Assembly: GCA_964525635.1 (NCBI GenBank)
Contig: CAZGJX010000080.1
Location: 1 to 21,233, forward strand
Reading direction: 5' to 3'
DNA length: 21,233 nt
DNA from: an uncultured archaeon
GTDB taxonomy: Archaea; Asgardarchaeota; Lokiarchaeia; Sigyniarchaeales; SOKP01
Positions 915 through 17,014 of the stretch are shown piece by piece. Under the pieces are notes generated by a model. That model worked only from the letters and a program-made list of their open reading frames with translations. It had not been told where the DNA came from and searched no databases. The position numbers and the translations under genes are program-made. The first letter of the stretch is position 1; each line of letters begins with the position of its first letter.

Positions 915-1829
915 ATGAAACCTTTAATACTTGTAGTGGATGATGATCCACACATACTAAAATATATTAGAATGATATTAGAATTCAACGAATGTCAGAT
1001 TATTACAGCAGAGAATGGAATTGAGGGTCTGAAAGTCCTCACACAACAAAAAAAAAATCCTGATCTCATCATTAGTGATATAATGATGCCAAAAATGGAC
1101 GGATATGAGTTTTTTAAGGAAATTTCTGATAATCCTAATTTCTGTCATATACCATTTATCTTTTTATCTATTCTTGATTCATCCGAGGATATTCGATTAG
1201 GAAAGATACTTGGAGCAGATGATTATCTTACTAAACCTATTAATGAAAGTGATTTCTCAGCGATAGTTGCCGGTAAAATTAAACGTAGTAAACAAATTCA
1301 ACTAATAAATAAAAAAATAAATGATGACCTTCTTTCAATAGGAATTTCAAAGGATAATCTATCAAATGATAATCTTAATGATGATTATAAGGACTATTTA
1401 ATTATGGTTGAAGTAAATTGGGATGATAGAGTCGGTCCAAAATTAGTAAGTTATTACCCTAAAGGTATTAATTTAGATTTTTCACTCGATAATGTTAGTT
1501 TTCAACTCTATGAGGCAATCAGTGCAATGTATGGTCAAGATAAAATACTAAATGCAGAAGGTCTTTTATTAAATTTAAAAAACTTTAAAATTATGGCGTA
1601 TGTTTATTTTGATTCATATCCAGATGAATCTTACAGAGGTGGAAGAAAGGATTATATGTTATCAATTATTGCACCTAAAATTACATATATACAATCTTTA
1701 AAACTCAAAAAAGTGTTTATGAACATATCTTCTATGTATAAGGAAAAGGGAAAATTGAATATTAAAGCATTTTGGAATCAAATTTTAGATATATTTAAAA
1801 GCCCAACTGTAAAAATTAAAACAGGTTAG
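915..1829 (+). CDS. Response regulator receiver domain fused to a C-terminal longin/uDENN-like domain
   Basis: Intact REC domain: VVDDD, PDLIISD55IMMPKMDG, FLS, ADDYLTK107P. The C-terminal ~140 aa begin with W-D-D-R-V-G-P-K-L-V-S-Y-Y-P (uDENN/longin F-x4-G-P hairpin pattern) and contain DESYRGGRKDYMLSII. REC is certain; the longin assignment is by motif and secondary-structure pattern. Confidence 0.85.
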   Translation: MKPLILVVDDDPHILKYIRMILEFNECQIITAENGIEGLKVLTQQKKNPDLIISDIMMPKMDGYEFFKEISDNPNFCHIPFIFLSILDSSEDIRLGKILGADDYLTKPINESDFSAIVAGKIKRSKQIQLINKKINDDLLSIGISKDNLSNDNLNDDYKDYLIMVEVNWDDRVGPKLVSYYPKGINLDFSLDNVSFQLYEAISAMYGQDKILNAEGLLLNLKNFKIMAYVYFDSYPDESYRGGRKDYMLSIIAPKITYIQSLKLKKVFMNISSMYKEKGKLNIKAFWNQILDIFKSPTVKIKTG

Positions 1830-2380
1830 ATATCAAAGGCTTTTTTAATACTATTTAAATCAAAAATCGTTGTATCATAGGTCTGGTATTGTGTATTAGT
1901 AGTTTGTAAAAAGGGATGAATTTTTTCTATAAATTTATTTTTTAGATTCTTCTCTTTTGGATCATAGTTAGGATCCATCTTATGAAAAAGGAGAATGATT
2001 TTTGCATCAGGACTGTATTTTTGAATAAGTTGATGAACTGCCATGAAATACATAGTAGAATTAAAAAATCGATAATAATCCTGAACATCTACTACATAAT
2101 AGAAAAACGAGATCTCATAAAAATATGATTCAGGATCTTCTAAATAATAATTTCTAAATAACTCTTGACCTCCAAAATCCCAAACCATTATATTTTTTTG
2201 AGGAAGTAATTTTCTTTTTACATTTTTTGTTGGAGTCATATTCGGTGGATAATCGGGATCTATATCAGGCATTTCAATTATATAATCTACGATTGTGGTT
2301 TTTCCAGCGTTTTCCATACCCATAATTACTAATTTACTGGGTTCTTTTTGATTATTAACATCATCCATTTGAAATCTCAT
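1826..2380 (-). CDS. Ras-superfamily small GTPase, Rag/Gtr1-like (Arf/Rag-related), G-domain only
   Basis: G1 GMENAGKT, G2 PT, G3 WDFGGQ, G4 HKMD, G5 TTIFD. HKMD and T(S/T)I(F/W)D are typical of Rag GTPases. Confidence 0.85.
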   Translation of the reverse strand: MRFQMDDVNNQKEPSKLVIMGMENAGKTTIVDYIIEMPDIDPDYPPNMTPTKNVKRKLLPQKNIMVWDFGGQELFRNYYLEDPESYFYEISFFYYVVDVQDYYRFFNSTMYFMAVHQLIQKYSPDAKIILLFHKMDPNYDPKEKNLKNKFIEKIHPFLQTTNTQYQTYDTTIFDLNSIKKAFDI

Positions 2381-4334: not shown

Positions 4335-4432
4335 TTATTAAATAAACTAATAAATTTTGATGATTTTTATCAGAATCATTTAATTTTATGGTTTTATTAT
4401 CTCAATGAATTATCATAAATATTTATATCTAA

Positions 4433-4446
4433 TGAATAATTATTCA
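4433..4446. promoter_or_regulatory. Palindromic operator TGAATAATTATTCA (copy 1)
   Basis: Perfect 14-bp palindrome 25 bp upstream of the ATG at 4472; identical copies at 7818, 10861 and 13371. Confidence 0.8.
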
Positions 4447-4471
4447 GAAATAAAATAAGATTAAAGAGAAC

Positions 4472-4831
4472 ATGACAAGAATAATCGGAATTCCTGCTGA
4501 TGGGCCAGAACTAATAGATAATATATCTGATCATTTTGGACATTGTAATTACTTTGTTGGTGTTGAAACTGATAATAATAATTTAAATAAAACCTTTTCA
4601 ATAAGAAATGAAGGTCATTCTAGTTGTATGGAACCTGTGTTAAATATGAGAGAGAGAAATGTAACTGATATGATCATTGGGGATATTGGGGAAAGACCCT
4701 ATATGAGATTTCTTAAAGTTGTAATTAATCTTTTTCAAGGGCTTCGAGGTAAAACAATAAAGGAAAATATTGAATTTTTATTAGAAGGAAAATTAAACGA
4801 ATTAAAAGGATCAAGTTGTAATAATCATTAA
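4472..4831 (+). CDS. NifB/NifX (IPR003731) family Fe/Mo-cofactor-binding protein
   Basis: IGIPADG...ISDHFGHCNYF motif, GHSSC, and C-terminal SSCNNH. Confidence 0.85.
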   Translation: MTRIIGIPADGPELIDNISDHFGHCNYFVGVETDNNNLNKTFSIRNEGHSSCMEPVLNMRERNVTDMIIGDIGERPYMRFLKVVINLFQGLRGKTIKENIEFLLEGKLNELKGSSCNNH

Positions 4832-4964
4832 ATTGATAATTTTAGAATATTTATTTTATTTATATAATACAATTAATAGTTTGCAAAAATGATATTTAAC
4901 TTTCGAAATTGAATAGGATATAAATCTTAAACTATTGTCTTCGAAAAAAATCAATTGATCTAAT

Positions 4965-5384
4965 ATGGGAAGAAGAATTCGTAGAAGATGGGTAAAATAC
5001 ACACCTAATAATTTTTATTTTCCTGATGCAAGACCATCAAATGAAGATTCTATTATATTAACAATTTCTGAATTTGAGGCTATGCGTCTTAAACATTATT
5101 TAAATTTAGATCAAAAAGCAGCAGCAGATGAAATGGGAATTAGTCAACCAACATTTTCTCGTATTCTTGAAACTGCTCATCAAAAGACAACTCAAGCTCT
5201 TATAGAAGGTAAAGATATTAAAGTTCATGGAGGCAATTTTGATTACAAAGTAAGTTTTGTAGGATATGGATGTATAGATTGTAACCATGAATGGGAGGAT
5301 CAAACTGCATCAAAAGATAAAAAAGTTAATTGCGTTAAATGTAATTCTAAAAATGTCTATTTATTCATTAGAGAACAAATTTAA
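4965..5384 (+). CDS. DUF134 (UPF0251) predicted DNA-binding protein with C-terminal CxxC...CxxC zinc-ribbon-like domain
   Basis: MGRRIRRR start, EFEAMRL, HTH QKAAADEMGISQPTFSRIL, ALIEGKDI..GG, then CIDC and CVKC. Confidence 0.88.
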   Translation: MGRRIRRRWVKYTPNNFYFPDARPSNEDSIILTISEFEAMRLKHYLNLDQKAAADEMGISQPTFSRILETAHQKTTQALIEGKDIKVHGGNFDYKVSFVGYGCIDCNHEWEDQTASKDKKVNCVKCNSKNVYLFIREQI

Positions 5385-5434
5385 TTTACTTCTGTTAATT
5401 ATTTTTTATAAATCTCTTTGAAAAATAATAATAA

Positions 5435-6355
5435 TCAATTCAAAAAAGCTTTTTTTAACTTTAAATAAATTTCATTAATAGCTATACTTGCTTTTGATTT
5501 AGGATCATATTCAACTACAGATTGTGCAAAAGACATTGCTTTAGCTATAGAAAAATCAAATGGAATCCTTCCAATAATATCAAATCCAGTTTCATCAATA
5601 TATTGTTTAAATTCTTTTTGAAAAGGACTTTTTAAATCAGCTTTATTGATAATAATACCGAAAGGGATACCAAACTGTTTTATAACCTCAATTGCTCTAA
5701 TAAGATCATGTAAGCCCGATGGTGTTGGTTCCGTAATTGTTATTACATAATCTAATCCAGAAACGGTAGCTATAACAGGACATCCGATTCCTGGAGGGCC
5801 ATCAATTAAAACCATATTATATTCCTCAAAATTTTCAATATTCTTTATATATGATTTACATTCCGTTACTAATTTACCTGAAGTTGTACTTCCCAATCTC
5901 GTTTTTCCATAGATCAATGGTGCTCCCATATCAGATATATAAGAAATGATTTCACCACTTTTAACAGGATTTATTATAAAAGCATTTTCGGGGCATAATA
6001 CTTTACAAGCACCACATCCTTCACATGATAAATAATTTAATTGAGGTATTCTATTGACATCATCCCAACTTAAAGCGTTAAATTCACAAAATTGTTCATC
6101 AATACATCGTTTACAATGGGTGCATTTTTCATTTTCAAACGTGGCTTTTAAAGTATTATATACGTCTTCTCGTTTAATATCATTATTAGATTTTGATGGA
6201 AGGATTAAAGCCAAATTAGGAGCATCTACATCACAATCTATAATGATTGTTTTTAAGGCAGGATCTTTATTTATCAAAGTTGCAAGAGATGCAACAAGAG
6301 AAGTTTTACCAACACCTCCTTTTCCTGAAACCACTCCAATCATTTTTTTTTTCAA
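5435..6355 (-). CDS. MinD/ParA-superfamily P-loop ATPase with inserted 2x[4Fe-4S] ferredoxin domain
   Basis: [61 protein letters not shown] start with a GAGGTG RBS. Confidence 0.92.
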   Translation of the reverse strand: MKKKMIGVVSGKGGVGKTSLVASLATLINKDPALKTIIIDCDVDAPNLALILPSKSNNDIKREDVYNTLKATFENEKCTHCKRCIDEQFCEFNALSWDDVNRIPQLNYLSCEGCGACKVLCPENAFIINPVKSGEIISYISDMGAPLIYGKTRLGSTTSGKLVTECKSYIKNIENFEEYNMVLIDGPPGIGCPVIATVSGLDYVITITEPTPSGLHDLIRAIEVIKQFGIPFGIIINKADLKSPFQKEFKQYIDETGFDIIGRIPFDFSIAKAMSFAQSVVEYDPKSKASIAINEIYLKLKKAFLN

Positions 6356-7275
6356 TTTTCGATACTCACCTCTTTATTGTTTAACCATTCTAATAAATTT
6401 CTAAATATATTTTGAAATGATTTATATCCTTCATTTTCTCTATTAAAATCATTTTTTTCATCCATTAGAGGCATTCCTTGACAATATGATAATACAATAT
6501 CATCATCTAAAGGAATATCACCAAGAATATTTATCTTATTTTCATCCAACTCTTTTAAAAATAATTCTCTAAAGCCCAATAATGAAGAACGATTAATTAT
6601 AACACGATAATCTTTCTCTAAAAGTTTTATTAACTCTATGATTCTGAATAAATCTAATTTTCCAAATTTTGTAGGTTCGGTAACAGGTATGATCAAATCA
6701 GATTTATTTATTAATAGTTCCACATCACAATGAGCTCCTGGAGCTGTATCAAGAATAATTATATCAAATTTATTGATAATATCATCTAATCTTTCGAGAA
6801 GATTTTCAATTATAGCAGCAGAACGTGCTTCAGATGGTACTAATTCCCCAACCATAAGTGATAGATTATTATCTGTTGAATAATATGTCCATCCTATTAT
6901 TTTAAAATCCTCTTCAATTGCTTTTTGAGGACATATCTTATAACATAATTTACATCCCGAACATACTGTTAATATTGGAATTGGGTAAGCATCTTTCACA
7001 TGTAATAGTGCATGGGTAGCACAATTTTCAGCACATAATCCACATTTATAACAGAATTCTTCTATTATTTTTGGCTTAAAAAAGTATACTGGTTTATTAT
7101 TTTCTAATTTCCTACCCAATAATAAATATGTGTTAGGATTATCAACATCTCCATCTATTAGAAGAACATTTTTTCCTTCGTTTTTAAACATAATTGCTAG
7201 ATTAACGGCAACTAATGTTTTACCTGTCCCTCCTTTTCCTCCTGTAATACAAATTATTTTTGAATTATCAGACAT
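6352..7275 (-). CDS. MinD/ParA-superfamily P-loop ATPase with inserted 2x[4Fe-4S] ferredoxin domain (partner of the downstream paralog)
   Basis: GGKGGTGKT, DGDVDNPN, CYKCGLCAENC, CSGCKLCYKICP, DTAPGAHC, VTEPT. Overlaps the next gene by 4 nt. Confidence 0.92.
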   Translation of the reverse strand: MSDNSKIICITGGKGGTGKTLVAVNLAIMFKNEGKNVLLIDGDVDNPNTYLLLGRKLENNKPVYFFKPKIIEEFCYKCGLCAENCATHALLHVKDAYPIPILTVCSGCKLCYKICPQKAIEEDFKIIGWTYYSTDNNLSLMVGELVPSEARSAAIIENLLERLDDIINKFDIIILDTAPGAHCDVELLINKSDLIIPVTEPTKFGKLDLFRIIELIKLLEKDYRVIINRSSLLGFRELFLKELDENKINILGDIPLDDDIVLSYCQGMPLMDEKNDFNRENEGYKSFQNIFRNLLEWLNNKEVSIEN

Positions 7276-7357
7276 TGTCTACTTTTTACTGTTTATATAA
7301 AATCAATAATTTTATTATTAATTGTGTTGAATATCGAATAATAGACTTAGTTAAAAT

Positions 7358-7759
7358 TTATTTGGGTATATTTTCTTCCATACCATTATGAGAATTAACA
7401 TTTGAAGAAATTAATTCTTTTAATTGACCTTTAATATAAAGATCTACTACATTTTTTATTGAAATTTCTTCTTCCTTTATTTCAAAAACTTTTATATTAA
7501 AAGCTTTAATTGCTTTGTCAGCATTCGGACCCAAAAACCCAATTATTAAAACTTCTGCTTTGTTTTCTCCAACAATTTGAGCCGCTTGTATACCTGCACC
7601 TCCCATTGATTTAGAAGCATAATTACTTAAAATTTTAACTGACTTTATATTATTATTTTCTAATTCAACAAATGTAAAACAAGGACATCTTCCAAAACGT
7701 GGATTTAGCTTATCATTTAATCCACCATTATCCATTGAAGGAATTGCAATAACAACCAT
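7358..7759 (-). CDS. NifB/NifX family protein (MTH1175/Orange-protein-like)
   Basis: IAIPS...LNPRFGRCPCF, GGAGIQAAQ, GFLGPNA. Lies directly upstream of the two Fe-S ATPases, as in ORP-type clusters. Confidence 0.88.
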   Translation of the reverse strand: MVVIAIPSMDNGGLNDKLNPRFGRCPCFTFVELENNNIKSVKILSNYASKSMGGAGIQAAQIVGENKAEVLIIGFLGPNADKAIKAFNIKVFEIKEEEISIKNVVDLYIKGQLKELISSNVNSHNGMEENIPK

Positions 7760-7817
7760 TTTTTAAAAGCCTATTATTAATTGTTTTATGTTTAAATTAT
7801 AGTTATATAAATTATTC

Positions 7818-7831
7818 TGAATAATTATTCA
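7818..7831. promoter_or_regulatory. Palindromic operator TGAATAATTATTCA (copy 2) in a divergent promoter
   Basis: Exact palindrome between divergent genes 7759(-) and 7942(+). A minus-strand TATA-like TTTATATA begins 6 bp beyond it. Confidence 0.85.
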
Positions 7832-7941
7832 TAATAATAAACTTATTAAAATATTTAAATTTAATCTAAATTGAAACTAAAAATTAAATTAAAATTAAAT
7901 TATAGTAATAAAAGAATATAAATAAAAAAAGGTAGACAAAT

Positions 7942-8814
7942 ATGGAAAATCAGAAAATTCCGGATGTTGATTTAAAAGAAACCATTAAACAAGGAAAGAA
8001 AGAAATGATAGATCAACAAACAAAAGATATCAATGAAAATATGGAGAAAATTAAACATAAAATAGTTATTATTTCAGGTAAAGGGGGAGTAGGAAAAACA
8101 ACTGTAGCAGTTAATTTAGCAATGAGTCTTGCAAGTGTTGGTAATAAGGTTGGAATATTAGATGTAGATATTACTGGTCCAAATATCAATAAAATGTTGG
8201 GGATTGATTCAACTTTAAAACCAAGAATTGATCCTGGAATGAAAAAATTCTATCCTGTTGATGGACCATTAAATACTAAAGTAATGAGTATGGCCTTTCT
8301 TATCGAGAGTGCAGATTCACCTGTAATTTGGAGAGGTCCAATGAAAATGGGAGCTGTAAGGCAGTTTCTTGGAGATGCTATATGGGGAAATTTAGACTAT
8401 TTAATATGTGATTTACCTCCCGGAACTTCAGATGAAACTTTAGATATTTTACAACTCATTCCTGATGAGAATGTAATAGTTGTTTCAACGCCTCAAGAAG
8501 TGGCACTAATGGATGCCCGAAAAACCATAAAAATGGCTCAAATTATGCAAAGAAATGTTTTGGGAATTATTGAAAATATGTCGGGATTCCGATGCCCTCA
8601 TTGTAGCAAGGAAATTGATCTTTATCCCCCGGGAGGTGCAGAAAAAGCAGCAAAGGATTTTAATATTGAGCTTTTAGGAAAAATTCCTTTTGATATTAAT
8701 GTAAGTATACAAGGTGATGAAGGTTTACCTTTTGTAATTAAACATGCTGATAATGAAAGTTCTAAATCTTTTAAAGAGATAGTAGATAAAATTCAGATAC
8801 TTTTGGAAAAATAA
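7942..8814 (+). CDS. mrp: Mrp/ApbC/NBP35 family Fe-S cluster carrier ATPase
   Basis: [49 protein letters not shown]. Confidence 0.95.
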
Positions 8815-8845
8815 AATAAAACAATAATTAAAAAAAAAAATAAGT

Positions 8846-9289
8846 ATGTCAAAAAAAGATTTTGATACTTTTTTGGAAAAACTTCAAAAAGAGATTATAG
8901 ATAAAGAAATTGAAGAATATAATGAATATATTGTTGAATTATTTCATAATCCAAAGAATTGGGGAAAACCAGATGAGCAGAATATAACCGTATGGCATGC
9001 ATATGAGGGGTCTTGTGGTGATACCATGCAATTTTTTCTTAAAATAAAGGACAATATTATTGAAAAAATAAATTTCATTACAGATGGATGTGGTGCTTCA
9101 GTTGCCACAGGAAGCCAAACAACTTTACTTGTTCAAGGTAAATCTTTAGATATTGCTGAAAAAATAGAACCGATAGATATTGATAATGCTTTAAAAGGAT
9201 TACCAGATGATCATAAACATTGTGCTGTATTAGCGGCAGAAACGTTAAAAGGAGCAATAAGTAAATATAAAATTTCTGATAATCTATGA
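8846..9289 (+). CDS. iscU: IscU/NifU-N family Fe-S scaffold protein
   Basis: HNPKNWG, SCGDTM, DGCGAS, HKHCA: the three conserved Cys of IscU. Confidence 0.9.
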   Translation: MSKKDFDTFLEKLQKEIIDKEIEEYNEYIVELFHNPKNWGKPDEQNITVWHAYEGSCGDTMQFFLKIKDNIIEKINFITDGCGASVATGSQTTLLVQGKSLDIAEKIEPIDIDNALKGLPDDHKHCAVLAAETLKGAISKYKISDNL

Positions 9290-9365
9290 AAAGTAGATAT
9301 TTTAAACTAAAAATATCAGAAAAAGAGACACAATTATTTTTATAAATTTAATTAAATGATTTAAG

Positions 9366-10307
9366 ATGAAATATGTCTATGGACCCGTTCCCAGCAGAAG
9401 ATTAGGGAGTTCTTTAGGAATTGATCCTATTCCTTTTAAAACGTGCAATTATCAATGTATTTATTGCCAATTGGGAAGGACCAATAATTTTACAAATAAA
9501 AGAAAGAATTATTTCCAAAAAAACGACATAATTAATGAGATAAAAATTGCTTTAAAGTTAAATAATAATAATTTTAAATATATAACCTTTGTAGGGAGTG
9601 GAGAACCTACTCTATACAAAGATTTAGAAGATTTAATATTGGAAGTAAAAAAGAATTCAAAAAAACCAATCTCTGTTATTACAAATGGGGCTTTATTGTA
9701 TAATGAAGAAGTGAGAAATGCTCTTATTAATGCTGATGTTGTTTTACCAAGTTTTGATGCTGGAAATGAGAAATTATTTATTCAAATTAATCGTCCTCAT
9801 CCTTCTATTAAATATAGTGATGTTATTAAAGGTTTTATTGATTTTAGAAAAGAATTTAAGGGAAAACTATGGATTGAAATAATGATAATGAAAGGAATTA
9901 ATGATTCTAAAGAAGTTTTATTGGAAATAAAGAAGAAATTAAATAAAATAAAACCTGACAGAATTGATATTAATATTCCAATAAGAAGTCCTACAGAAGA
10001 TTGGGTTAATATTCCAGATAACCAGGTTTATAATCTTTTAAATAATATTTTTGGAAATTTCAAAAATCTTAATTTTCCTGAGGAAGGAGAATTTCAGATA
10101 TATTCTTCAAATTTTGAAGGAGAAGTTTTATCTATAATTCAACGTCATCCTATGAGGCAAGAACAAATCTTTAATACTTTTTCTTCACAATTTTTAAATG
10201 AAAAAGATATTTTAACACGTTTAGAGAAACTTGAGTCAAAAAAAAAAATCCAAAAAAAAATATATAATAAAAAGATTTATTGGAAATTTAGAGAGGATTC
10301 AAACTAG
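9366..10307 (+). CDS. Radical SAM protein (COG0731-like family)
   Basis: YVYGPVPSRRLGSSLGID, CNYQCIYC (CxxxCxxC), GSGEPTL, ITNG. Confidence 0.9.
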   Translation: MKYVYGPVPSRRLGSSLGIDPIPFKTCNYQCIYCQLGRTNNFTNKRKNYFQKNDIINEIKIALKLNNNNFKYITFVGSGEPTLYKDLEDLILEVKKNSKKPISVITNGALLYNEEVRNALINADVVLPSFDAGNEKLFIQINRPHPSIKYSDVIKGFIDFRKEFKGKLWIEIMIMKGINDSKEVLLEIKKKLNKIKPDRIDINIPIRSPTEDWVNIPDNQVYNLLNNIFGNFKNLNFPEEGEFQIYSSNFEGEVLSIIQRHPMRQEQIFNTFSSQFLNEKDILTRLEKLESKKKIQKKIYNKKIYWKFREDSN

Positions 10308-10348
10308 CTAAAAATAAATTATTTTATTATTTAAAACTCACTTTAGAA

Positions 10349-10816
10349 TTAATACCCCGTACGTCTACCTTGACCACCGCCTGCTCCAAGCCCCCCACCT
10401 GCTCCACGGCCTCCCCCCATTCCTCTTCCTCCGCCCATTCCATAATGTGCATTAACATTAGAATTTGTTATTTTTGTTAATTTATTTTGAAGAAATAAAT
10501 CAATAGATGTCTTAACCGTTAATTCCTGATTTGGTGCTTGGAAAATATCCAAATTTAAAGAACTTAATGATTGAAATGCATTTGGTCCTAAAAAGTTAAC
10601 AATTATTGCATTAGCACTATTATCTCCGATTATTTTTGCTGCTTGTATCCCAGCGCCTCCAAAAGCTTCATTTGCACTATTGGGAATTGTTTTTACTGCT
10701 TCTATTTTGTTATTTTCAATTGTTACAAAAGTAAAACTATCACAACGTCCAAAACGAGGATTTAAAGTTTCATTTAAACCACCATTCCCATATGTAGGAA
10801 CCGCAACTATTACCAT
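10349..10816 (-). CDS. NifB/NifX family protein with Gly/Arg-rich C-terminal tail (IssA-like architecture)
   Basis: LNPRFGRCDSF, GGAGIQAA, LGPNAF; tail HYGMGGGRGMGGGRGAGGGLGAGGGQGRRTGY. Confidence 0.88.
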   Translation of the reverse strand: MVIVAVPTYGNGGLNETLNPRFGRCDSFTFVTIENNKIEAVKTIPNSANEAFGGAGIQAAKIIGDNSANAIIVNFLGPNAFQSLSSLNLDIFQAPNQELTVKTSIDLFLQNKLTKITNSNVNAHYGMGGGRGMGGGRGAGGGLGAGGGQGRRTGY

Positions 10817-10860
10817 TTAAAATTCAACCTTGTTTTTTTAATAGTTATATTTAAGAATTA

Positions 10861-10874
10861 TGAATAATTATTCA
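10861..10874. promoter_or_regulatory. Palindromic operator TGAATAATTATTCA (copy 3) in a divergent promoter
   Basis: Exact palindrome, extending to 16 bp (ATGAATAATTATTCAT), between 10816(-) and 10960(+). A minus-strand CTTAAATA begins 5 bp beyond it. Confidence 0.85.
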
Positions 10875-10959
10875 TTAATATATAATAAAAATTATAACTA
10901 TAAAAATCTAATCATTAAAAAAAAATAATCAAAATCATTATTGGGAGTTAATTCAAAAA

Positions 10960-11364
10960 ATGAAATATGCAATAAGTACAGATGGAGATGAGGTATGTCC
11001 ACATTTCGGTAGAGCCCCTCATTTTACTATTATAAATATAAAAGATAATAAATTAATTGATAAAAATCTACTTACTAATCCAGGTCATACTATTGGAAGC
11101 ATTCCTAAATTTATTTCTGACCAAGGTGTAAATTGTATGATTACCGGAGGAATGGGTCATAGAGCAGTTCAATTCTTTAACCAATATGCTATAGACGTTA
11201 TAGTTGGTATATCTGGTAAAATAAATTATGTCATTGAAAAAATACTAGATGGAACATTAGAAGGAGGAGAAAGCATATGCGCCCCAGGAAGGGGTAAAGG
11301 ATATGGAATAGAAAAAATCCATACTGAAGAAGATGAAAATGATAAATTAAATCATCATCACTAA
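10960..11364 (+). CDS. NifB/NifX family protein with Cys/His-containing tail
   Basis: YAISTDG..VCPHFGRAPHF, NPGH, TGGMG; C-terminal CAPGRGKGYG...HHH. Confidence 0.88.
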   Translation: MKYAISTDGDEVCPHFGRAPHFTIINIKDNKLIDKNLLTNPGHTIGSIPKFISDQGVNCMITGGMGHRAVQFFNQYAIDVIVGISGKINYVIEKILDGTLEGGESICAPGRGKGYGIEKIHTEEDENDKLNHHH

Positions 11365-11488
11365 TCTTCAATACTTAATCAATCAATTAAGATCAATTTC
11401 TATAATAATAAAGAAGATAAAAATAATATGGATTTTACAAATATTTATTCAAAATTATATTTTTTATTTAAATTTATTTTAGAGAAAA

Positions 11489-12175
11489 ATGTTAAAAAAT
11501 ATACAATCATTTAGAATTGATATTGTATTTGATAATAGGTCTATAAAAAATGAATTTTTAGAGGGTTTTGGATTTTCTGCATTAATATATAATTATTTTA
11601 CAGGTAACTTTTTATTATTTGATACAGGAGGTAATTCTGAAATTCTTATTCATAATTTCAAATCACTTAATATTGATATTAAAGAGATAAAAAAAATAAT
11701 AATTTCTCATGATCATTTTGATCATTCTGGCGGGCTTGAAGGAATTTATAATATTAATTCGGAGATAGAAATTTATATACCATTCGAAACTTACACTAAT
11801 TATAAATCAAAATTCCCAAATTCAAAAATAAATAAAATATCAAATTCTATAGTAATTGAAAAGAATGTATATTCATCCGGTCAATTAGGAACTTCATTAA
11901 AAGAACAAGCTATTTATTTAAAAACATTAAAGAATGAAATAATTATTTTAGTTGGTTGTGCTCACCCTGGATTGGAGAATATTATTGTAGATGCAAATAA
12001 ATTTGGAAATATTAAAGCTATAATTGGTGGATTTCATAATTTTCGTAAATATTCTTATTTAAAAAATATACAATTTATTGGTGCATGTCATTGTACGACA
12101 CATATAAATGATATTAAAAAAAGATTTCCCAATCAATATAAAGAAATTTTTGTTGGATCTTCGTTAATATTTTAA
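11489..12175 (+). CDS. Metallo-beta-lactamase fold hydrolase (COG1237-like)
   Basis: LLFDTG, SHDHFDHSGG (HxHxDH), GCAHPG, GGFH, CHCT. Confidence 0.9.
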   Translation: MLKNIQSFRIDIVFDNRSIKNEFLEGFGFSALIYNYFTGNFLLFDTGGNSEILIHNFKSLNIDIKEIKKIIISHDHFDHSGGLEGIYNINSEIEIYIPFETYTNYKSKFPNSKINKISNSIVIEKNVYSSGQLGTSLKEQAIYLKTLKNEIIILVGCAHPGLENIIVDANKFGNIKAIIGGFHNFRKYSYLKNIQFIGACHCTTHINDIKKRFPNQYKEIFVGSSLIF

Positions 12176-12285
12176 AATAATAAATTAATCAAGAGAATTA
12201 GATTAAACATAGATTAAAAAGGAAAAAAAAATATTGGAGAAGAAAGCTAATATTTAGATAAAATTACTATTAAAGAGATTCCAAA

Positions 12286-12495
12286 TTGAAAGCTAAAACT
12301 AAAATATGTAAATGGTATACTCTTTGTCCGATAAAATATTATGTTGAAAATGGTAAATTGGATATAAAATGGATTGAAGAATATTACTTAATAGGAAATA
12401 AAGATTGTTTTAGATATAAAATGGAAGAAGATAGAATTCATCATCCAAATAATATGCTACCTAATGGCGAAATAAATCAAGATCTTCATTTTTAA
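12286..12495 (+). CDS. Small Cys-containing hypothetical protein
   Basis: 69 aa, TTG start; CKWY..CP, C.RY.MEE, HP.NMLP.G. Fills the gap between neighbouring genes; function unknown. Confidence 0.65.
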   Translation: MKAKTKICKWYTLCPIKYYVENGKLDIKWIEEYYLIGNKDCFRYKMEEDRIHHPNNMLPNGEINQDLHF

Positions 12496-12522
12496 TTAAA
12501 TTCATTGATATGATTTTTTTTA

Positions 12523-12921
12523 TCAGTTGTTATGAGTAAAGTTATCTAAAGCTTCAGTGACTTCTGATGTGATATGATGTTCAATTCCACAGCATAATTT
12601 ATTTAGTAAATATTTATCATTAATTTTTAATGTATTAATAAAAAAAGATTTCAAAATATTATATCGTGTTAAAATCTTTTTTGCAATCATTTTACCTTCA
12701 GAAGATAATCTTAATGAACGTCTTGGTTTCCAAAATATCAAATTATTTTTCTTAAGTTTATATAACATTCCTGTCACTGAAGGAGGTCTAATTTTTAAGT
12801 AATCTGCAATTTCTGAATTCGAAACCCATCCACCTCTTTTTCTTTTTGAAATTATATAAATTGCCTTTAGATAGTCTTCTCTACTTTCATAAATATCGTT
12901 AGAAATTTCTTCCACCTTCAA
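12523..12921 (-). CDS. DtxR/MntR family metal-dependent transcriptional regulator (no SH3/FeoA domain)
   Basis: EDYLKAIY, HTH SEIADYLKIRPPSVTGMLYKL, LSSEG, CCGIEHH. TTG start 6 bp after the DUF5320 stop. Confidence 0.9.
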   Translation of the reverse strand: MKVEEISNDIYESREDYLKAIYIISKRKRGGWVSNSEIADYLKIRPPSVTGMLYKLKKNNLIFWKPRRSLRLSSEGKMIAKKILTRYNILKSFFINTLKINDKYLLNKLCCGIEHHITSEVTEALDNFTHNN

Positions 12922-12927
12922 AATGAA

Positions 12928-13290
12928 TTATTCTGGTTTTTTTACATTAGTAATTTTTTTCGTAATATCATTAATAGCTTTATTAATTTCGTTCATTTCA
13001 CTCTCTAAATATTCCTTTTCTTGTTTAAGAATATCTATTTGGTTCTCAGGAGTGACATTTGGTACACTTATAGGTACAAAAGGATTATATGATGGCGGCC
13101 AGTATCCTCCGAATCCTCTAAAACCTCTACTAAATCGAATACCTCTGCCTCTACCTCTGCCCCCCCCAAAATATCCCCCCATTCCAGGACCTCTTGTATA
13201 TCCTGGTGAATCAAAGCCTGAACAATAACCTAAACCTCGACCCGTCCTTGGACCTAGTCCATTAGGGCCCGTACGATCTCCACCTGGCAA
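12928..13290 (-). CDS. DUF5320 family protein (Gly/Arg-rich N-terminus, C-terminal coiled coil)
   Basis: MPGGDRTGPNGLGPRTGRGLGYC signature, RG-rich middle, LKQEKEYLESEM..I coiled coil. GAGGTG RBS before the TTG start. Confidence 0.88.
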   Translation of the reverse strand: MPGGDRTGPNGLGPRTGRGLGYCSGFDSPGYTRGPGMGGYFGGGRGRGRGIRFSRGFRGFGGYWPPSYNPFVPISVPNVTPENQIDILKQEKEYLESEMNEINKAINDITKKITNVKKPE

Positions 13291-13370
13291 ATTTTTTACA
13301 CCTCTTATTTTTATTTTAATTATTAATTTTTTCTTATGTATAAAATAGTAAAATTCATATTTAAGTTTTA

Positions 13371-13384
13371 TGAATAATTATTCA
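13371..13384. promoter_or_regulatory. Palindromic operator TGAATAATTATTCA (copy 4)
   Basis: Exact palindrome upstream of the DUF5320-dtxR unit. A minus-strand CTTAAATA begins 5 bp beyond it. Confidence 0.85.
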
Positions 13385-13549
13385 GAATAAATATTTTCAT
13401 TTAAAAATCGTAAAAATGTAAACGATAGAAATGATAATTATAATGACATTTCCTTACTCTTAATAATCCAATAAATATATATTGTATTTCTTTCAAATAA
13501 TATAAAATTTAAATATGATTGATATAATCAAATCACTATAAATGTATTA

Positions 13550-13563
13550 TGAATATATATTCA
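13550..13563. promoter_or_regulatory. Variant operator TGAATATATATTCA
   Basis: Perfect palindrome with the same TGAATA/TATTCA arms and a different 2-bp centre; extends to ATG...CAT. Confidence 0.6.
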
Positions 13564-13727
13564 TTAACACTCTTCAATGAAATTCATTTTAATTATAAAT
13601 TGAAATCTCAAATTTTATATTGTTTTGCTTTTATTATTTATCTAAATTTATTTTTTTTTAAAAAGCATCATAATATAAACTAAAATCATAATTTTTAGAG
13701 AATAAATTAAAAAGAAAAATAATTAAA

Positions 13728-13765
13728 TTAGGAAACCCTAATATTTTAATATTAGTTATGACTAA
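13728..13765. promoter_or_regulatory. Tandem DtxR/MntR-type boxes TTAGGAAACCCTAA (13728-13741) and TTAGTTATGACTAA (13752-13765)
   Basis: Two TTAG-N6-CTAA inverted repeats, starting 24 bp apart, just upstream of feoA1 and near a dtxR gene. Confidence 0.7.
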
Positions 13766-13803
13766 ATTACTTAGAAAAATATCTTTTTTTATTTAAAACT
13801 AAA

Positions 13804-14100
13804 ATGGGATCTAGTTATAAAGATACAAGGAAAACCTCTATGAAAAATACACCATTAATTAAGTGTCTTAATGAATGTAATATAGGAGAGGAGCTTGAAG
13901 TCCAAAAAGTTGATGCAGGAATTATGGCAACACAAAGATTAGCTAACTTAGGAATTGTTCCTGGTGTTAAAATAATTATAAGTAAAGCAGCTCCATTAAA
14001 TGGTCCTATCGAAATAACAGTTAAGGGAACTAAAATAGTACTCGGTAGAGGATTAGTTTCTAAAATTATAGTGAAATGTAATAATAGTTGTAATGGTTAA
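13804..14100 (+). CDS. feoA: Ferrous iron transport protein A (copy 1)
   Basis: RLANLGIVPG, APLNGPIEI.VKG..IVLGRG. An alternative start exists at 13840. Confidence 0.92.
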   Translation: MGSSYKDTRKTSMKNTPLIKCLNECNIGEELEVQKVDAGIMATQRLANLGIVPGVKIIISKAAPLNGPIEITVKGTKIVLGRGLVSKIIVKCNNSCNG

Positions 14101-14338
14101 AATTTAAATACTTTTTTAGATCCTATTTATTAAAGAAAAAGTCATATTTCTATTTATAAAACTAAAAAGATAAACTAAATAATAAATTATCTATATTACA
14201 TAACTTTATTGAATTATTCAATAAATTTATTATATTTGATTTAAACTTTTTATTTTTGATTAAATATTTATTATTAAATATAGAAAATTCATATATTTTG
14301 ATTTATAATCTCAAAATTAGAATATTTCTTTATATTAA

Positions 14339-14352
14339 TTAGTTGTACCTAA
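14339..14352. promoter_or_regulatory. DtxR/MntR-type box TTAGTTGTACCTAA
   Basis: Third TTAG-N6-CTAA, directly before a CTTAAATA TATA-like element upstream of feoA2. Confidence 0.65.
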
Positions 14353-14412
14353 AAGCTTAAATATGATTATTCATAATATGAATATAGGAAAAATCATTTT
14401 TTTTTTATAATT

Positions 14413-14718
14413 ATGAATAATACAATAACAAAAAAATTAAAACATGTAGAAAGACAAGGAATTCCACTAATAAGATGCTTAACTCAATGTGAAAAAAATG
14501 AAGTTTTATTAGTTGATTCAGTAAATTCTGGAGGAAATGCTAAAAATCGTTTAGCAAATTTAGGAATTATTCCTGGATCTAAGATAATAAAAAAGAAAAT
14601 CGCTCCATTAAAAGGTCCACTAGAAATTGAAATAAAAGGATCTAAATTAATTATTGGAAGAGGATTAGCTTCAAAAATATTAGTTAAGTGTCCAAAAAAA
14701 TGTCAATCTGAAATATAA
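14413..14718 (+). CDS. feoA: Ferrous iron transport protein A (copy 2)
   Basis: RLANLGIIPG, APLKGPLEIEIKG..LIIGRG. Confidence 0.92.
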   Translation: MNNTITKKLKHVERQGIPLIRCLTQCEKNEVLLVDSVNSGGNAKNRLANLGIIPGSKIIKKKIAPLKGPLEIEIKGSKLIIGRGLASKILVKCPKKCQSEI

Positions 14719-14814
14719 AGAATTTAAAATATAATATCTCTATTTAAAAAAACCTAAAATACCAAATCTTTGAATTAAAATCTATTTTATTGGAGTGTAA
14801 AAACAAGATCAAAA

Positions 14815-16977
14815 ATGAAAAAACATAAAAGAAAACATCGTTTCAAGGAACAATTTAAAGGTTGTAAAAAAAAGCAAGAGACGAAGGATGGAAGAATTAT
14901 AAATATTGCTTTAGCGGGTAATCCTAATGTTGGAAAAAGTGTTATCTTTAACCAATTAACGGGACTTTCACAAACTATCGGTAATTGGCCTGGAAAAACA
15001 GTTGAAAGGATGGAAGGTCATTTGAATTTCTTAGGTCATTATATTAATATAGTTGATTTACCAGGTATTTATTCATTATCGACTTATTCTTTAGAAGAAA
15101 TTGTTAGTAGGGAATACATTGTTTCTGATGAAGTTGATATAATTATAAATGTTGTTGATGCTACAAACCTAGAAAGAAATCTTTTTTTAACTTTTCAATT
15201 GCTAGAATTAAGGATTCCTATAATCATTGCTATTAATCAAATGGATATACTTAGAAAGCGAAATATTGAACTTAATTTTGAGAAATTTGAGGAAATATTT
15301 AAGGTCCCAGTTATTCCCGTTGTAGCTGTTCATGGTGTTGGTGTACATCAATTATTAGAAGAAGTAATTGAATTAATTTATCACCAAGAATTCCATCCAC
15401 ATCGTCAAGAACATAAGACTAAACACTGGAGAGAACATCAACATTCTTTTAATATGAAAAGTATTTATCACCAACTAGAATCTAAGACTTCATTTAAGGA
15501 TATTTATAAATTTCCTGATTTGTCTTCCTTACTTTTATTTGGTAAAGAAATAGAATATAAAATTAATGATTTATGGAAACAATTGGATAATCGTTTTATA
15601 AATCCTAATCAATATTCATATCCCTCTCGATTTTTAGCATTAAAAATCCTTGAAAATGATAATGAAATTATAAAAATACTTTCAAAGAAAAAAGAAAACA
15701 TTAAAATAATAGAATCAGCAGAAAAATTTAGAAAAGAATTGGAGGATTATCATGGAGAGGATATTTCTACTATATTATCTTCCGAAATATATCAAAATAT
15801 TAATAGAGTTTTAGATGATTTAATAATTATTAAGTCTAAAAATGAAATTAAGAAAGAGACAATTACCGATATTTTAGATCATATAACAACTCATTCAATT
15901 TTTGGCTATATTATTTTAATTTTTGTTCTAATTGGAATATATTTATTTACTTTTACTATTGGAGACTTTTTGAAAGGATTATCAGAGGATTTATATAATA
16001 ATTTAAGCAATAATATAGATACTGATACTAATTTATCAAAAATTTTATGGGAAGGTGCTATGGGGGGATTCTTTGGAGCTGTGGGTGGTGTATTAGTATA
16101 TGTCATCCCGTTTTTCTTGATTATCGAAATCTTGCAAGATTCTGGTTACTTACCAAGAGCAGCATTTTTATTAGATAAATTTATGCATTTTCTAGGTGTT
16201 CATGGTAAAACTATTATTCCAATGATTCTTGGTTTTGGATGTAATGTACCTGCTTGCGCAGGATGTAGAATTATGGAGACTGAGAGAGAGAAAAAGATTT
16301 CTGTAGCTCTTACTTCATTGATTCCATGTGCTGCAACAATGACTGTTGTTATGGGATTAGTTGGTAGATATTTAGGATTTAATTATGTTTTGATTTTGTT
16401 TGGAATTAATTTTATTGTTATACTAATAGTTGGAAGAATTTTAAATAGAATTATGCCAGGTGAATGTACTGAACTAATTATGGAAATGCACGAGTACCGT
16501 GCCCCAAATACTAATGTTATTATGAAACAAACATGGATTCGTTCCAAAGAATTTATCTTTAAATCATTACCTATTATCGTCATAATTGGAATTCTAATGG
16601 AAGTTATGTACATATTTAATGCTCTCGATCCAGTCAATTTAGTACTCTCACCAATTACGGTTTTATGTTTAGGTCTTCCAGCTGTAACTGGAGTATTTCT
16701 AATATATGGAATTTTAAGAAAAGAATTAACAGTTGTTCTGCTTGGAGGTCTTGCTGAATCTATGGGTTTAGTATCCATATTGGAATTATTGACTCCTATT
16801 CAAATGTTTACTTTTAGTTTGGTTACAATGTTGTATATCCCCTGTTTTGCTACGATAATCATAATTGCTAAGCAAACTAATTGGAAGTATGCAATTCAAA
16901 TTTCCTTAATGGAGATATTCATTGCTATATTAATAGGAAGTCTTATTAATTGGGGATATTATTTATTTACAATTTAA
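14815..16977 (+). CDS. feoB: Ferrous iron transport protein B
   Basis: GNPNVGKS, GNWPGKTVE, DLPGIYSL, NQMD, DSGYLPRAAF, GFGCNVPA, LYIPC, and multiple TM helices. Confidence 0.97.
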   Translation: MKKHKRKHRFKEQFKGCKKKQETKDGRIINIALAGNPNVGKSVIFNQLTGLSQTIGNWPGKTVERMEGHLNFLGHYINIVDLPGIYSLSTYSLEEIVSREYIVSDEVDIIINVVDATNLERNLFLTFQLLELRIPIIIAINQMDILRKRNIELNFEKFEEIFKVPVIPVVAVHGVGVHQLLEEVIELIYHQEFHPHRQEHKTKHWREHQHSFNMKSIYHQLESKTSFKDIYKFPDLSSLLLFGKEIEYKINDLWKQLDNRFINPNQYSYPSRFLALKILENDNEIIKILSKKKENIKIIESAEKFRKELEDYHGEDISTILSSEIYQNINRVLDDLIIIKSKNEIKKETITDILDHITTHSIFGYIILIFVLIGIYLFTFTIGDFLKGLSEDLYNNLSNNIDTDTNLSKILWEGAMGGFFGAVGGVLVYVIPFFLIIEILQDSGYLPRAAFLLDKFMHFLGVHGKTIIPMILGFGCNVPACAGCRIMETEREKKISVALTSLIPCAATMTVVMGLVGRYLGFNYVLILFGINFIVILIVGRILNRIMPGECTELIMEMHEYRAPNTNVIMKQTWIRSKEFIFKSLPIIVIIGILMEVMYIFNALDPVNLVLSPITVLCLGLPAVTGVFLIYGILRKELTVVLLGGLAESMGLVSILELLTPIQMFTFSLVTMLYIPCFATIIIIAKQTNWKYAIQISLMEIFIAILIGSLINWGYYLFTI

Positions 16978-16989
16978 GAAGCGAGATAA

Positions 16990-17014
16990 CACATCTCTTT
17001 AGGTTAGGGATGTG
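16990..17014 (+). terminator. Hairpin CACATCTCT-TTAGGTT-AGGGATGTG after the feoB stop
   Basis: 9-bp stem with one G-U pair and a 7-nt loop, between convergent feoB and aor; function uncertain. Confidence 0.35.

Follow-up and report, generated by a model that had tools for sequence, protein, structure and literature searches.

The locus described here raises the question of whether a bacterial-type two-component signal can be wired directly to a eukaryotic-type small-GTPase switch in an Asgard archaeon. It lies at one end of contig C80 (CAZGJX010000080.1), which was analyzed over its whole length of 21,233 nt and is referred to below as the window. A gene for a response regulator, P0001, in which a receiver domain is joined to a C-terminal longin domain, converges there on a gene for a Rag-like GTPase, P0002. 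We find that the pairing of these genes is conserved in other Asgard genomes and conclude that the two proteins are very probably functional partners. We put at roughly one in two the probability that the output of P0001 is a longin domain of the GTPase-activating protein (GAP) type and that P0002 is its client; this GAP activity is predicted from the fold, the motifs, and the gene context. The two genes overlap as follows.

915 to 1829, plus strand: P0001, a receiver-longin response regulator of 304 amino acids (open reading frame [ORF] and translation)
1826 to 2380, minus strand: P0002, a Rag/Gtr1-like GTPase of 184 amino acids with a G domain only (Pfam Gtr1_RagA)
1826 to 1829: TTAG, the overlapping convergent stop codons, TAG on the plus strand and TAA on the minus strand

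An earlier description of the window, made from its letters alone (the original prediction), had reported the overlapping stops, and the TTAG is indeed found where the two frames end.

Conservation of the gene pair

P0001 belongs to an orthogroup that forms a separate clade of five genomes (Shimodaira-Hasegawa-like approximate likelihood ratio test [SH-aLRT], 98), and in all five of them the orthologue of P0002 adjoins that of P0001. At the other four loci, the P0002 orthologue is 56 to 58% identical and lies 22 to 99 nt downstream on the same strand. Three of these four also have a divergent upstream kinase gene, whose products combine about nine hydrophobic segments (hence 9-TM kinase) with HisKA-HATPase domains and share 62 to 67% mutual identity. 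Nothing else is syntenic among the orthogroup loci, and their flanking genes differ; with identities of 56 to 61% and several genera represented, they are not copies of one strain.

The wider family was surveyed in 301 genomes of the phylum. The longin domain was found in 89, with 59 of 68 in the window's family and 21 of 21 in one other family. Gene context was examined in about 12 kb around each of 60 further copies and on the whole of contig C85 from the window's own genome, which together yielded 63 full-length receiver-longin genes. A small GTPase gene lies within 3.5 kb of 43 of these 63 (0.68). The window's genome has about 77 small-GTPase ORFs, and at that density chance would place one of any kind this close in about 0.14 of cases and one of the Rag-like kind in 0.04. 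The adjacency noted in the original prediction therefore extends across Asgard genomes, in 5/5 loci of the orthogroup and 43/63 of the relatives. At 29 loci the genes form a same-strand cassette in the order GTPase > histidine kinase > receiver-longin, and 27 of these 29 cassettes sit behind a divergently transcribed Lrp/AsnC gene and a gene for an ArsR-type helix-turn-helix (HTH) protein. A further longin gene is not a conserved part of the cassettes.

One of the 29, on contig C85 of the window's genome (locus L083, 6733 to 11987), is a complete cassette that holds this genome's second receiver-longin gene.

10837 to 11229 of C85: ArsR-type HTH protein
10242 to 10796 of C85: Rag/Arf-like GTPase of 184 amino acids
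8284 to 10215 of C85: MASE3-PAS-HisKA-HATPase kinase
7330 to 8217 of C85: receiver-longin protein

At its ends are a divergent Lrp/AsnC gene and, past the receiver-longin gene, an unannotated 171-amino-acid ORF that is not conserved at the other loci.

These cassettes bear on two caveats of the original prediction. The first, that the genes are convergent and so not cotranscribed, stands for the window but not for the four orthologous loci, where the receiver-longin gene and then the GTPase gene run in the same direction. The second, the absence of a kinase, likewise stands for the window, which has no kinase gene anywhere, but the orthologous and paralogous cassettes do carry histidine kinases.

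Other arrangements bring the same kinds of domain together. P0007 is a Ras-like GTPase fused to a longin domain that is 60% identical to that of the window, and seven of the eight members of its cluster are 378 amino acids long. In P0127, from Odinarchaeota, an Arf-like GTPase is fused to a longin domain. In another family (f24), the neighbor, only 10 nt away, is a multidomain Rag-like protein of 462 amino acids, and at one locus a Ras-like GTPase is the neighbor of the receiver-longin gene. A search for longer homologues returned only two receiver fusions. Gene context points mainly to Rag-like partners, with Ras-like or Arf-like partners in some lineages.

The longin domain of P0001

The C-terminal part of P0001 carries the following features.

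1401 to 1799, plus strand: longin domain, amino acids 163 to 295, topology b-b-a-b-b-b-a-a (DSSP, VIA-align, and Foldseek)
1419 to 1439, plus strand: W169-D170-x3-G174-P175, in the b1-b2 hairpin (conservation and profile alignment)
1635 to 1637, plus strand: codon of R241, candidate arginine finger in the b4-b5 loop (model and conservation)

An AlphaFold2 model of the isolated domain has a predicted local distance difference test score (pLDDT) of 90.9. DSSP assigns strands at 163-170 and 174-181, a helix at 191-206, strands at 215-221, 226-236, and 244-253, and helices at 258-278 and 283-295. In two high-confidence models this order is that of a longin, with no roadblock-style N-terminal helix. 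When the domain model was compared with solved structures by VIA-align, the best match was a Lokiarchaeal longin (8yqg_B; Z, 14.5), followed by FLCN (6nzd_H; Z, 13.0; root mean square deviation, 2.2 Å across 130 residues), the Lst4/FNIP longin (12.5), C9orf72 (12.1), SMCR8 (10.4), GATOR1 (10.3), and the SEA complex (10.2), the seventh of the seven best matches. The longins of TRAPP, sedlin, VAMP7, and adaptins scored below 10, and roadblock proteins reached 8.1 at most, with MglB and other roadblocks at about 8. A roadblock fold for this domain is ruled out by the topology and the Z ranking. The best Foldseek matches (E values, 2e-4 to 9e-4) were GATOR1 chains, the Loki longin 8yqg, DENND10, and FLCN; DENND1 is also on the list, and LOV, PAS, and GAF folds come low down. 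The longin fold proposed in the original prediction is what AlphaFold2, Foldseek, and VIA-align return, with FLCN, C9orf72, SMCR8, and GATOR1 among the best solved matches. On the predicted models, the C-terminal domain of P0001 is a longin, nearest to the GAP-type longins.

Sequence searches say less. No Pfam or NCBIfam model matches the last ~140 amino acids of P0001, and phmmer found no match to the domain among PDB sequences. A search of the genome contigs with full-length P0001 was dominated by bacterial receiver domains, and the longin part yielded nothing. The ESM Atlas gave weak leads (scores of 0.80 and 0.76), with NPR2 on 19% of the members of one neighbor cluster. P0121 is the only relative that touches Pfam Folliculin (E value, 0.0032, below the cutoff). 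Since the sequence link is weak, we call the domain FLCN/NPRL2/C9orf72-type by its structure and motifs and not as a member of a Pfam family. P0001 stops at the longin domain, and neither a DENN domain nor the NPRL2 C-terminal domain is present. Three other receiver-longin proteins, P0121, P0109, and P0073, have 110 to 130 extra amino acids past the longin domain.

Conserved motifs and the loss of R241

A HMMER scan with the domain gave 181 representative relatives, 108 of them with E values below 1e-10; conservation was counted over 120 representatives with the full domain. Conservation among the 181 is highest at WD-x3-GP and R241. The stretch WDDRVGPKLVSYYP begins at W169 of P0001. This Trp is kept in 115/120 representatives and in all 63 locus copies, and G174 and P175, which open strand 2, are kept in 116/120 and 114/120, respectively; D170, P182, D233, M248, and P254 are the other top-conserved positions. 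The profile aligns W169-D170-x3-G-P with WDNILGP of C9orf72 (W33-D34...G38-P39) at the same spacing. A GP motif specific to GAP-type longins has been reported (PMC12290439): C9orf72, SMCR8, FLCN, and NPRL2 have it, FNIP2, NPRL3, adaptins, TRAPP, and DENND proteins lack it, and in space it adjoins the arginine finger. In C9orf72, the W33G/D34K substitutions abolish GAP activity, and R147 of SMCR8 points at the BeF3- in ARF1 (PMC8213707).

Translation confirms both the stretch quoted in the original prediction, D237-ESY-R241-GGRKD-Y247-MLSII, and the position of the R241 codon; in that prediction, the D-x3-R-G-x4-Y spacing of the stretch was likened to that of human FLCN. The residue lies in the loop between strands 226-236 and 244-253. 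From the loop topology in the model, we infer that R241 is the structural equivalent of R164 in FLCN, R78 in NPRL2, and R147 in SMCR8. The position is Arg in 93/120 representatives and Lys in six more.

Retention of this Arg follows the presence of a GTPase gene. R241 is kept in 42 of the 43 copies linked to a GTPase, versus 11 of the 20 unlinked copies, so that it is lost in 1/43 and 9/20, respectively (Fisher P value of 6e-5, which overstates the case because the relatives are not independent). Among the non-Arg copies, the Arg was lost independently in about five lineages, of which four are unlinked. The direction of this correlation is what an Arg directed at a GTPase predicts.

A third, long-branch paralogue (loci L158 to L161 and L171, in genomes G204, G222, G189, G225, and G240) accounts for one of these lineages; it has Lys, His, or Gln in place of R241, no kinase or GTPase gene lies within 6 kb of it, and the same genomes also carry a cassette copy. 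This paralogue may have been repurposed or may serve as a noncatalytic partner. Fusions of the domain to kinase, PAS, RsbRD, DUF1638, TPR, and GTPase domains retain the WD-GP-R triad. In P0122, P0130, P0133, P0134, P0141, P0150, and P0155, a triad-bearing longin domain is N-terminal and the remainder consists of TPR repeats; these proteins are 310 and 680 amino acids long.

The receiver domain

The N-terminal part of P0001 carries the features expected of a response regulator.

927 to 1268, plus strand: receiver (REC) domain, amino acids 5 to 118 (Pfam PF00072)
1077 to 1079, plus strand: codon of D55, the predicted phosphoacceptor (conservation in relatives)
1245 to 1337, plus strand: long alpha-5/linker helix, amino acids 111 to 141 (DSSP on the AlphaFold2 model)

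Response_reg (PF00072) matches amino acids 5 to 118 with an E value of 1.5e-24 (86.7 bits, against a curated cutoff of 30.2), and receivers of the PleD/RpaB/VanR/PhoB type are the best NCBIfam matches of the domain. The catalytic set is intact and comprises the acidic pocket D9/D10, D55, S85, and K107. Among 63 relatives, D55 and S/T85 are found in 63/63 and K107 in 62/63, and position 10 is Asp in 61/61 rows ungapped at that column; D55, K107, and P108 are nearly invariant in the family alignment. The description of this domain as an intact receiver with D55 is borne out by the Pfam match and the conserved pocket. The AlphaFold2 model of full-length P0001, built from an alignment of 66 sequences, has a pLDDT of 90.5 and a predicted template modeling score of 0.87. 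After the alpha-5 helix comes a flexible stretch, with pLDDT values of 60 to 71 over amino acids 141 to 160.

The Rag-like GTPase P0002

Gtr1_RagA (PF04670) is the best Pfam match of P0002 (E value, 3.7e-19; 69.5 bits against a cutoff of 22), and the Arf model comes second (5.4e-15). Its nearest solved relative is LokiRagM, a Lokiarchaeal monomeric Rag-like GTPase (8zla/9m28; E value, 1.6e-29), followed by yeast Gtr1 and human RagA. A literature search found no paper behind the PDB entries for LokiRagM or for the Loki Roadblock-Longin protein. The motifs of the G domain are as follows.

2297 to 2320, minus strand: G1/P-loop GMENAGKT, amino acids 21 to 28 (translation; conserved among cassette GTPases)
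2165 to 2179, minus strand: G3 DFGGQ, with the predicted catalytic Gln72 (WD[FYL]GGQ in 11/11 aligned cassette GTPases)
1973 to 1984, minus strand: G4 HKMD, amino acids 133 to 136, with the Rag-type His for Asn (aligned to HKMD of Gtr1)
1859 to 1873, minus strand: G5 TTIFD, amino acids 170 to 174 (T[ST]I[FY] conserved in cassette GTPases)

P0002 aligns with yeast Gtr1 through KYSPDAKI..L.HKMD, and HKxD is present in 11/11 aligned cassette GTPases. The Gtr1_RagA match and the Gtr1 alignment agree with the earlier description of P0002 as a Rag-type GTPase with HKMD and TTIFD motifs and an intact G3 Gln. P0002 ends with its G domain at 184 amino acids; because it has no C-terminal roadblock domain, we regard it as Rag-like and not as a Rag orthologue.

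Elsewhere in the genome, contig C8 has a 286-amino-acid ORF for a Rag-like GTPase (65654 to 66512, plus strand) that is the genome's best Folliculin match, below the threshold (E value, 4.7e-4). The match suggests that a longin is fused to the GTPase here, an arrangement described in MK-D1.

The locus in the window

The window is contig C80 of a genome assembly (G000) of 4.45 Mb in 245 contigs, rated 100% complete. Its GC content is about 26%, and proteins closely homologous to those it encodes are annotated as 'Candidatus Lokiarchaeota/Promethearchaeota archaeon', in agreement with the Asgard host named in the original prediction, here a Loki-type archaeon. Misassembly of the convergent junction was considered and is ruled out by contigs of other sequencing runs that bridge the TTAG (X3, 877 to 2336; X4, 1289 to 2075; X5, 1447 to 1898). 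Contigs from four other salt marsh metagenome runs span both junctions of the GTPase gene with zero differences, and since the bridging contigs are identical, the convergent layout is real. With the GTPase gene inverted and the kinase gene not adjacent, the window represents a derived variant of the orthologous layout.

C80 ends 914 nt upstream of P0001, in a high-depth repeat. At positions 1 to 54, the contigs of other runs are three to six times deeper and continue elsewhere, which indicates that C80 breaks in a repeated element. Between positions 118 and 600 (minus strand), the open frame holds only the last 66 amino acids of a universal stress protein (Usp; positions 84 to 141 of the 141 in the Pfam model), and by its sequence this gene is probably a pseudogene with a broken N-terminal part. 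On the other side of the gene pair, positions 4400 to 17000 form an iron/Fe-S island with four NifB/NifX-like proteins, two ferredoxin-ATPases, Mrp/NUBPL, IscU, a radical SAM protein, DtxR, and FeoA-FeoA-FeoB. No link of this island with the receiver-longin pair was seen in other genomes.

Proposed mechanism and alternatives

In the mechanism that we propose, a polytopic membrane histidine kinase, of the kind encoded in the orthologous and paralogous cassettes, would phosphorylate D55. The phosphorylated receiver would alter its dimer or packing state, and the long alpha-5 helix and flexible linker would relay the change. Receivers of the PleD, PhoB, and VanR type dimerize on activation. The longin domains, probably as a homodimer (the top structural match, 8yqg, is an Asgard longin dimer), would cup P0002, with the face formed by W169/D170 and G174/P175 holding the switch regions of the GTPase. 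R241 could then complete the active site from the b4-b5 loop beside Gln72, GTP would be hydrolyzed, and P0002 would be switched off. Four steps of this scheme, namely, the binding of P0001 to P0002, the GAP direction, homodimerization, and phospho-control, are ones that we infer. Taken as a whole, a phospho-switched homodimeric longin GAP acting on a monomeric Rag-like GTPase could correspond, in minimal prokaryotic form, to the GATOR1/FLCN-Rag nutrient switch, a parallel that we draw tentatively. It is conceivable on the same reading that the sensor kinase takes the place of the lysosomal sensors and that one chain unites a C9orf72-type holder with an SMCR8/FLCN-type finger.

Several observations weigh against a longin GAP driven by phosphorelay. 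Most longin/roadblock platforms, such as TRAPP, Mon1-Ccz1, DENN, and Ragulator, are guanine nucleotide exchange factors (GEFs) or scaffolds. The family profile has a single match among PDB sequences, the C9orf72 longin over its full length, at an E value of only 0.16, and Pfam Folliculin (PF11704) and NPR2 (PF06218) miss P0001, both directly and genome-wide. In the model, R241 is assigned to the b4-b5 loop by topology alone. The window's assembly has no full-length orthologue of the 9-TM kinase (the best matches, at 40% identity, cover the catalytic core only), and the GTPase gene is inverted in this genome.

The first of these points bears on a reading in which the pair is real but the longin domain has a role other than that of a GAP. 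The domain could be a GEF, or a docking platform or effector that responds to the nucleotide state, with phosphorylation recruiting or releasing the GTPase; in a variant, the GTPase would act on the two-component pathway. Such roles rest on the same linkage evidence as a GAP does, and the longins of DENND1 and DENND10 are among the Foldseek matches. Tran et al. describe longin/roadblock platforms as mainly GEFs and occasionally GAPs, and RomR, a receiver protein of Myxococcus, binds MglA-GTP together with RomX (PMC13408092). We nevertheless consider a non-GAP role rather unlikely: the GP motif is reported to be absent in the non-GAP longins (DENND, TRAPP subunits, FNIP2, and NPRL3), the Arg is lost together with the GTPase neighbor, as a catalytic finger predicts, and GAP-type longins outscore GEF-type ones structurally.

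Because of the inversion and the missing kinase orthologue, the window's copy may be wired differently. In the extreme case, the module would be an orphaned or rewired remnant whose cognate kinase was lost and in which P0001 and P0002 have ceased to act as a phospho-controlled pair, with P0001 fed by another kinase or constitutively unphosphorylated. The window has LON> GT< (receiver-longin and GTPase genes), where four orthologous loci have LON> GT>, three of them with a divergent 9-TM kinase; a full-length kinase orthologue is lacking from an assembly rated as complete; and the broken Usp gene and the contig end lie upstream of P0001. Against this, both ORFs are intact, all catalytic and motif residues are retained, and the genes still abut. 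The kinase gene could also be unassembled, given the 245 contigs and the end of C80 in a repeat 914 nt upstream, and functional orphan response regulators are common. We regard a remnant as improbable.

Chance adjacency, against which the original prediction had cautioned, with a C-terminal domain serving for dimerization or ligand binding, would suit a genome with ~77 small-GTPase ORFs, the convergent genes of the window, and the LOV, PAS, and GAF folds low in the Foldseek list, but it is rejected as extremely improbable, since 5/5 orthologous loci keep the pair although their flanks are not syntenic, 29 further loci have cassettes, linkage is 0.68 where 0.04 to 0.14 is expected, and other lineages have fusions of the domain with GTPases.

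Comparison with known systems

Both the protein class and the idea of a path from two-component systems to longins were already known. Liu et al. (bioRxiv 10.1101/2020.10.19.343400, Fig. 5c; Nature 2021) reported NPRL2-like longins of Asgard archaea fused to two-component domains and conjectured that two-component systems provide input to 'eukaryotic' regulators. Like P0001, their fusions, from Loki- and Thor-type Asgards, join an NPRL2/FLCN-type longin to a receiver or a kinase domain. The searched text of the preprint contains neither 'histidine kinase' nor 'receiver' and names no partner GTPase or cassette. What our analysis adds to theirs is the Rag-like GTPase neighbor, the GT>HK>LON> and HK< LON> GT> cassettes (GT, GTPase; HK, histidine kinase; LON, receiver-longin), and the observation that the Arg and GTPase adjacency go together.

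A recent study of Asgard longins (PMC12290439; Traffic 2025) analyzed 15 deposited proteins, and the choice between ArfR and Rag partners was left undecided. It has in common with our findings the pair of GP and Arg motifs, their places in the fold (that of the Arg by topology), and the hypothesis of an ancestral GAP; the words 'receiver' and 'response regulator' are never used in it. A full-text search of the literature found no paper that joins Asgard, histidine kinase, response regulator, and longin. New here are thus the individual cassettes, the pairing, across orthologues, with a Rag-like GTPase that has a G domain only, the correlation of the Arg with adjacency, and the GTPase fusions.

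Compared with the eukaryotic longin GAPs, namely, FLCN-FNIP, which acts on RagC/D, GATOR1 NPRL2-NPRL3, which acts on RagA/B, and C9orf72-SMCR8, which acts on Arf, P0001 shares the longin fold, a GP motif in the b1-b2 hairpin, the C9orf72 spacing of WD-x3-GP, a conserved Arg placed by topology in the b4-b5 loop, and a predicted client that is Rag/Gtr-like. It differs in having neither DENN nor the NPRL2 C-terminal domain. Its putative holder (WD) and finger (Arg) are on one polypeptide, whereas eukaryotes divide them between two subunits, and its predicted input is a His-Asp phosphorelay, whereas that of the eukaryotic systems comes from lysosomal nutrient sensors. P0002, unlike the eukaryotic Rag clients, lacks a roadblock dimerization domain.

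Bacteria also have small-GTPase switches with regulators of the roadblock superfamily, as in MglA-MglB-RomR/RomX of Myxococcus and the actinobacterial conservon CvnA-D. They resemble the present pair in linking a GTPase switch to RomR, a receiver protein, or to CvnA, a kinase-like sensor. In P0001, however, the domain is a longin and not a roadblock, it has a candidate arginine finger, and it is fused to the receiver, and P0002 is Rag/Gtr-like and not MglA- or CvnD-like.

Implications

Asgard archaea have dozens of small GTPases and of longin and roadblock proteins, and matching the one to the other is hard, since operons of MK-D1 do not, as a rule, combine GTPase with longin genes (Tran et al. 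2024). The locus described here and its relatives offer a defined, testable answer to the question of Rag or Arf partners raised in PMC12290439. The cassette of three to five genes provides one sensor kinase, one receiver-longin protein, and one Rag-like GTPase as small soluble or separable proteins. If the proposed mechanism is true, the Lrp/AsnC and ArsR genes conserved beside the main cassette would tie the module to nutrient or amino acid status. Should the GAP activity prove false, this would limit how far function can be read from motif conservation in the 'eukaryotic signature' proteins of Asgards. Should it prove true, the pairing of a longin GAP with a Rag GTPase would predate eukaryotes and would once have been driven by a His-Asp phosphorelay.

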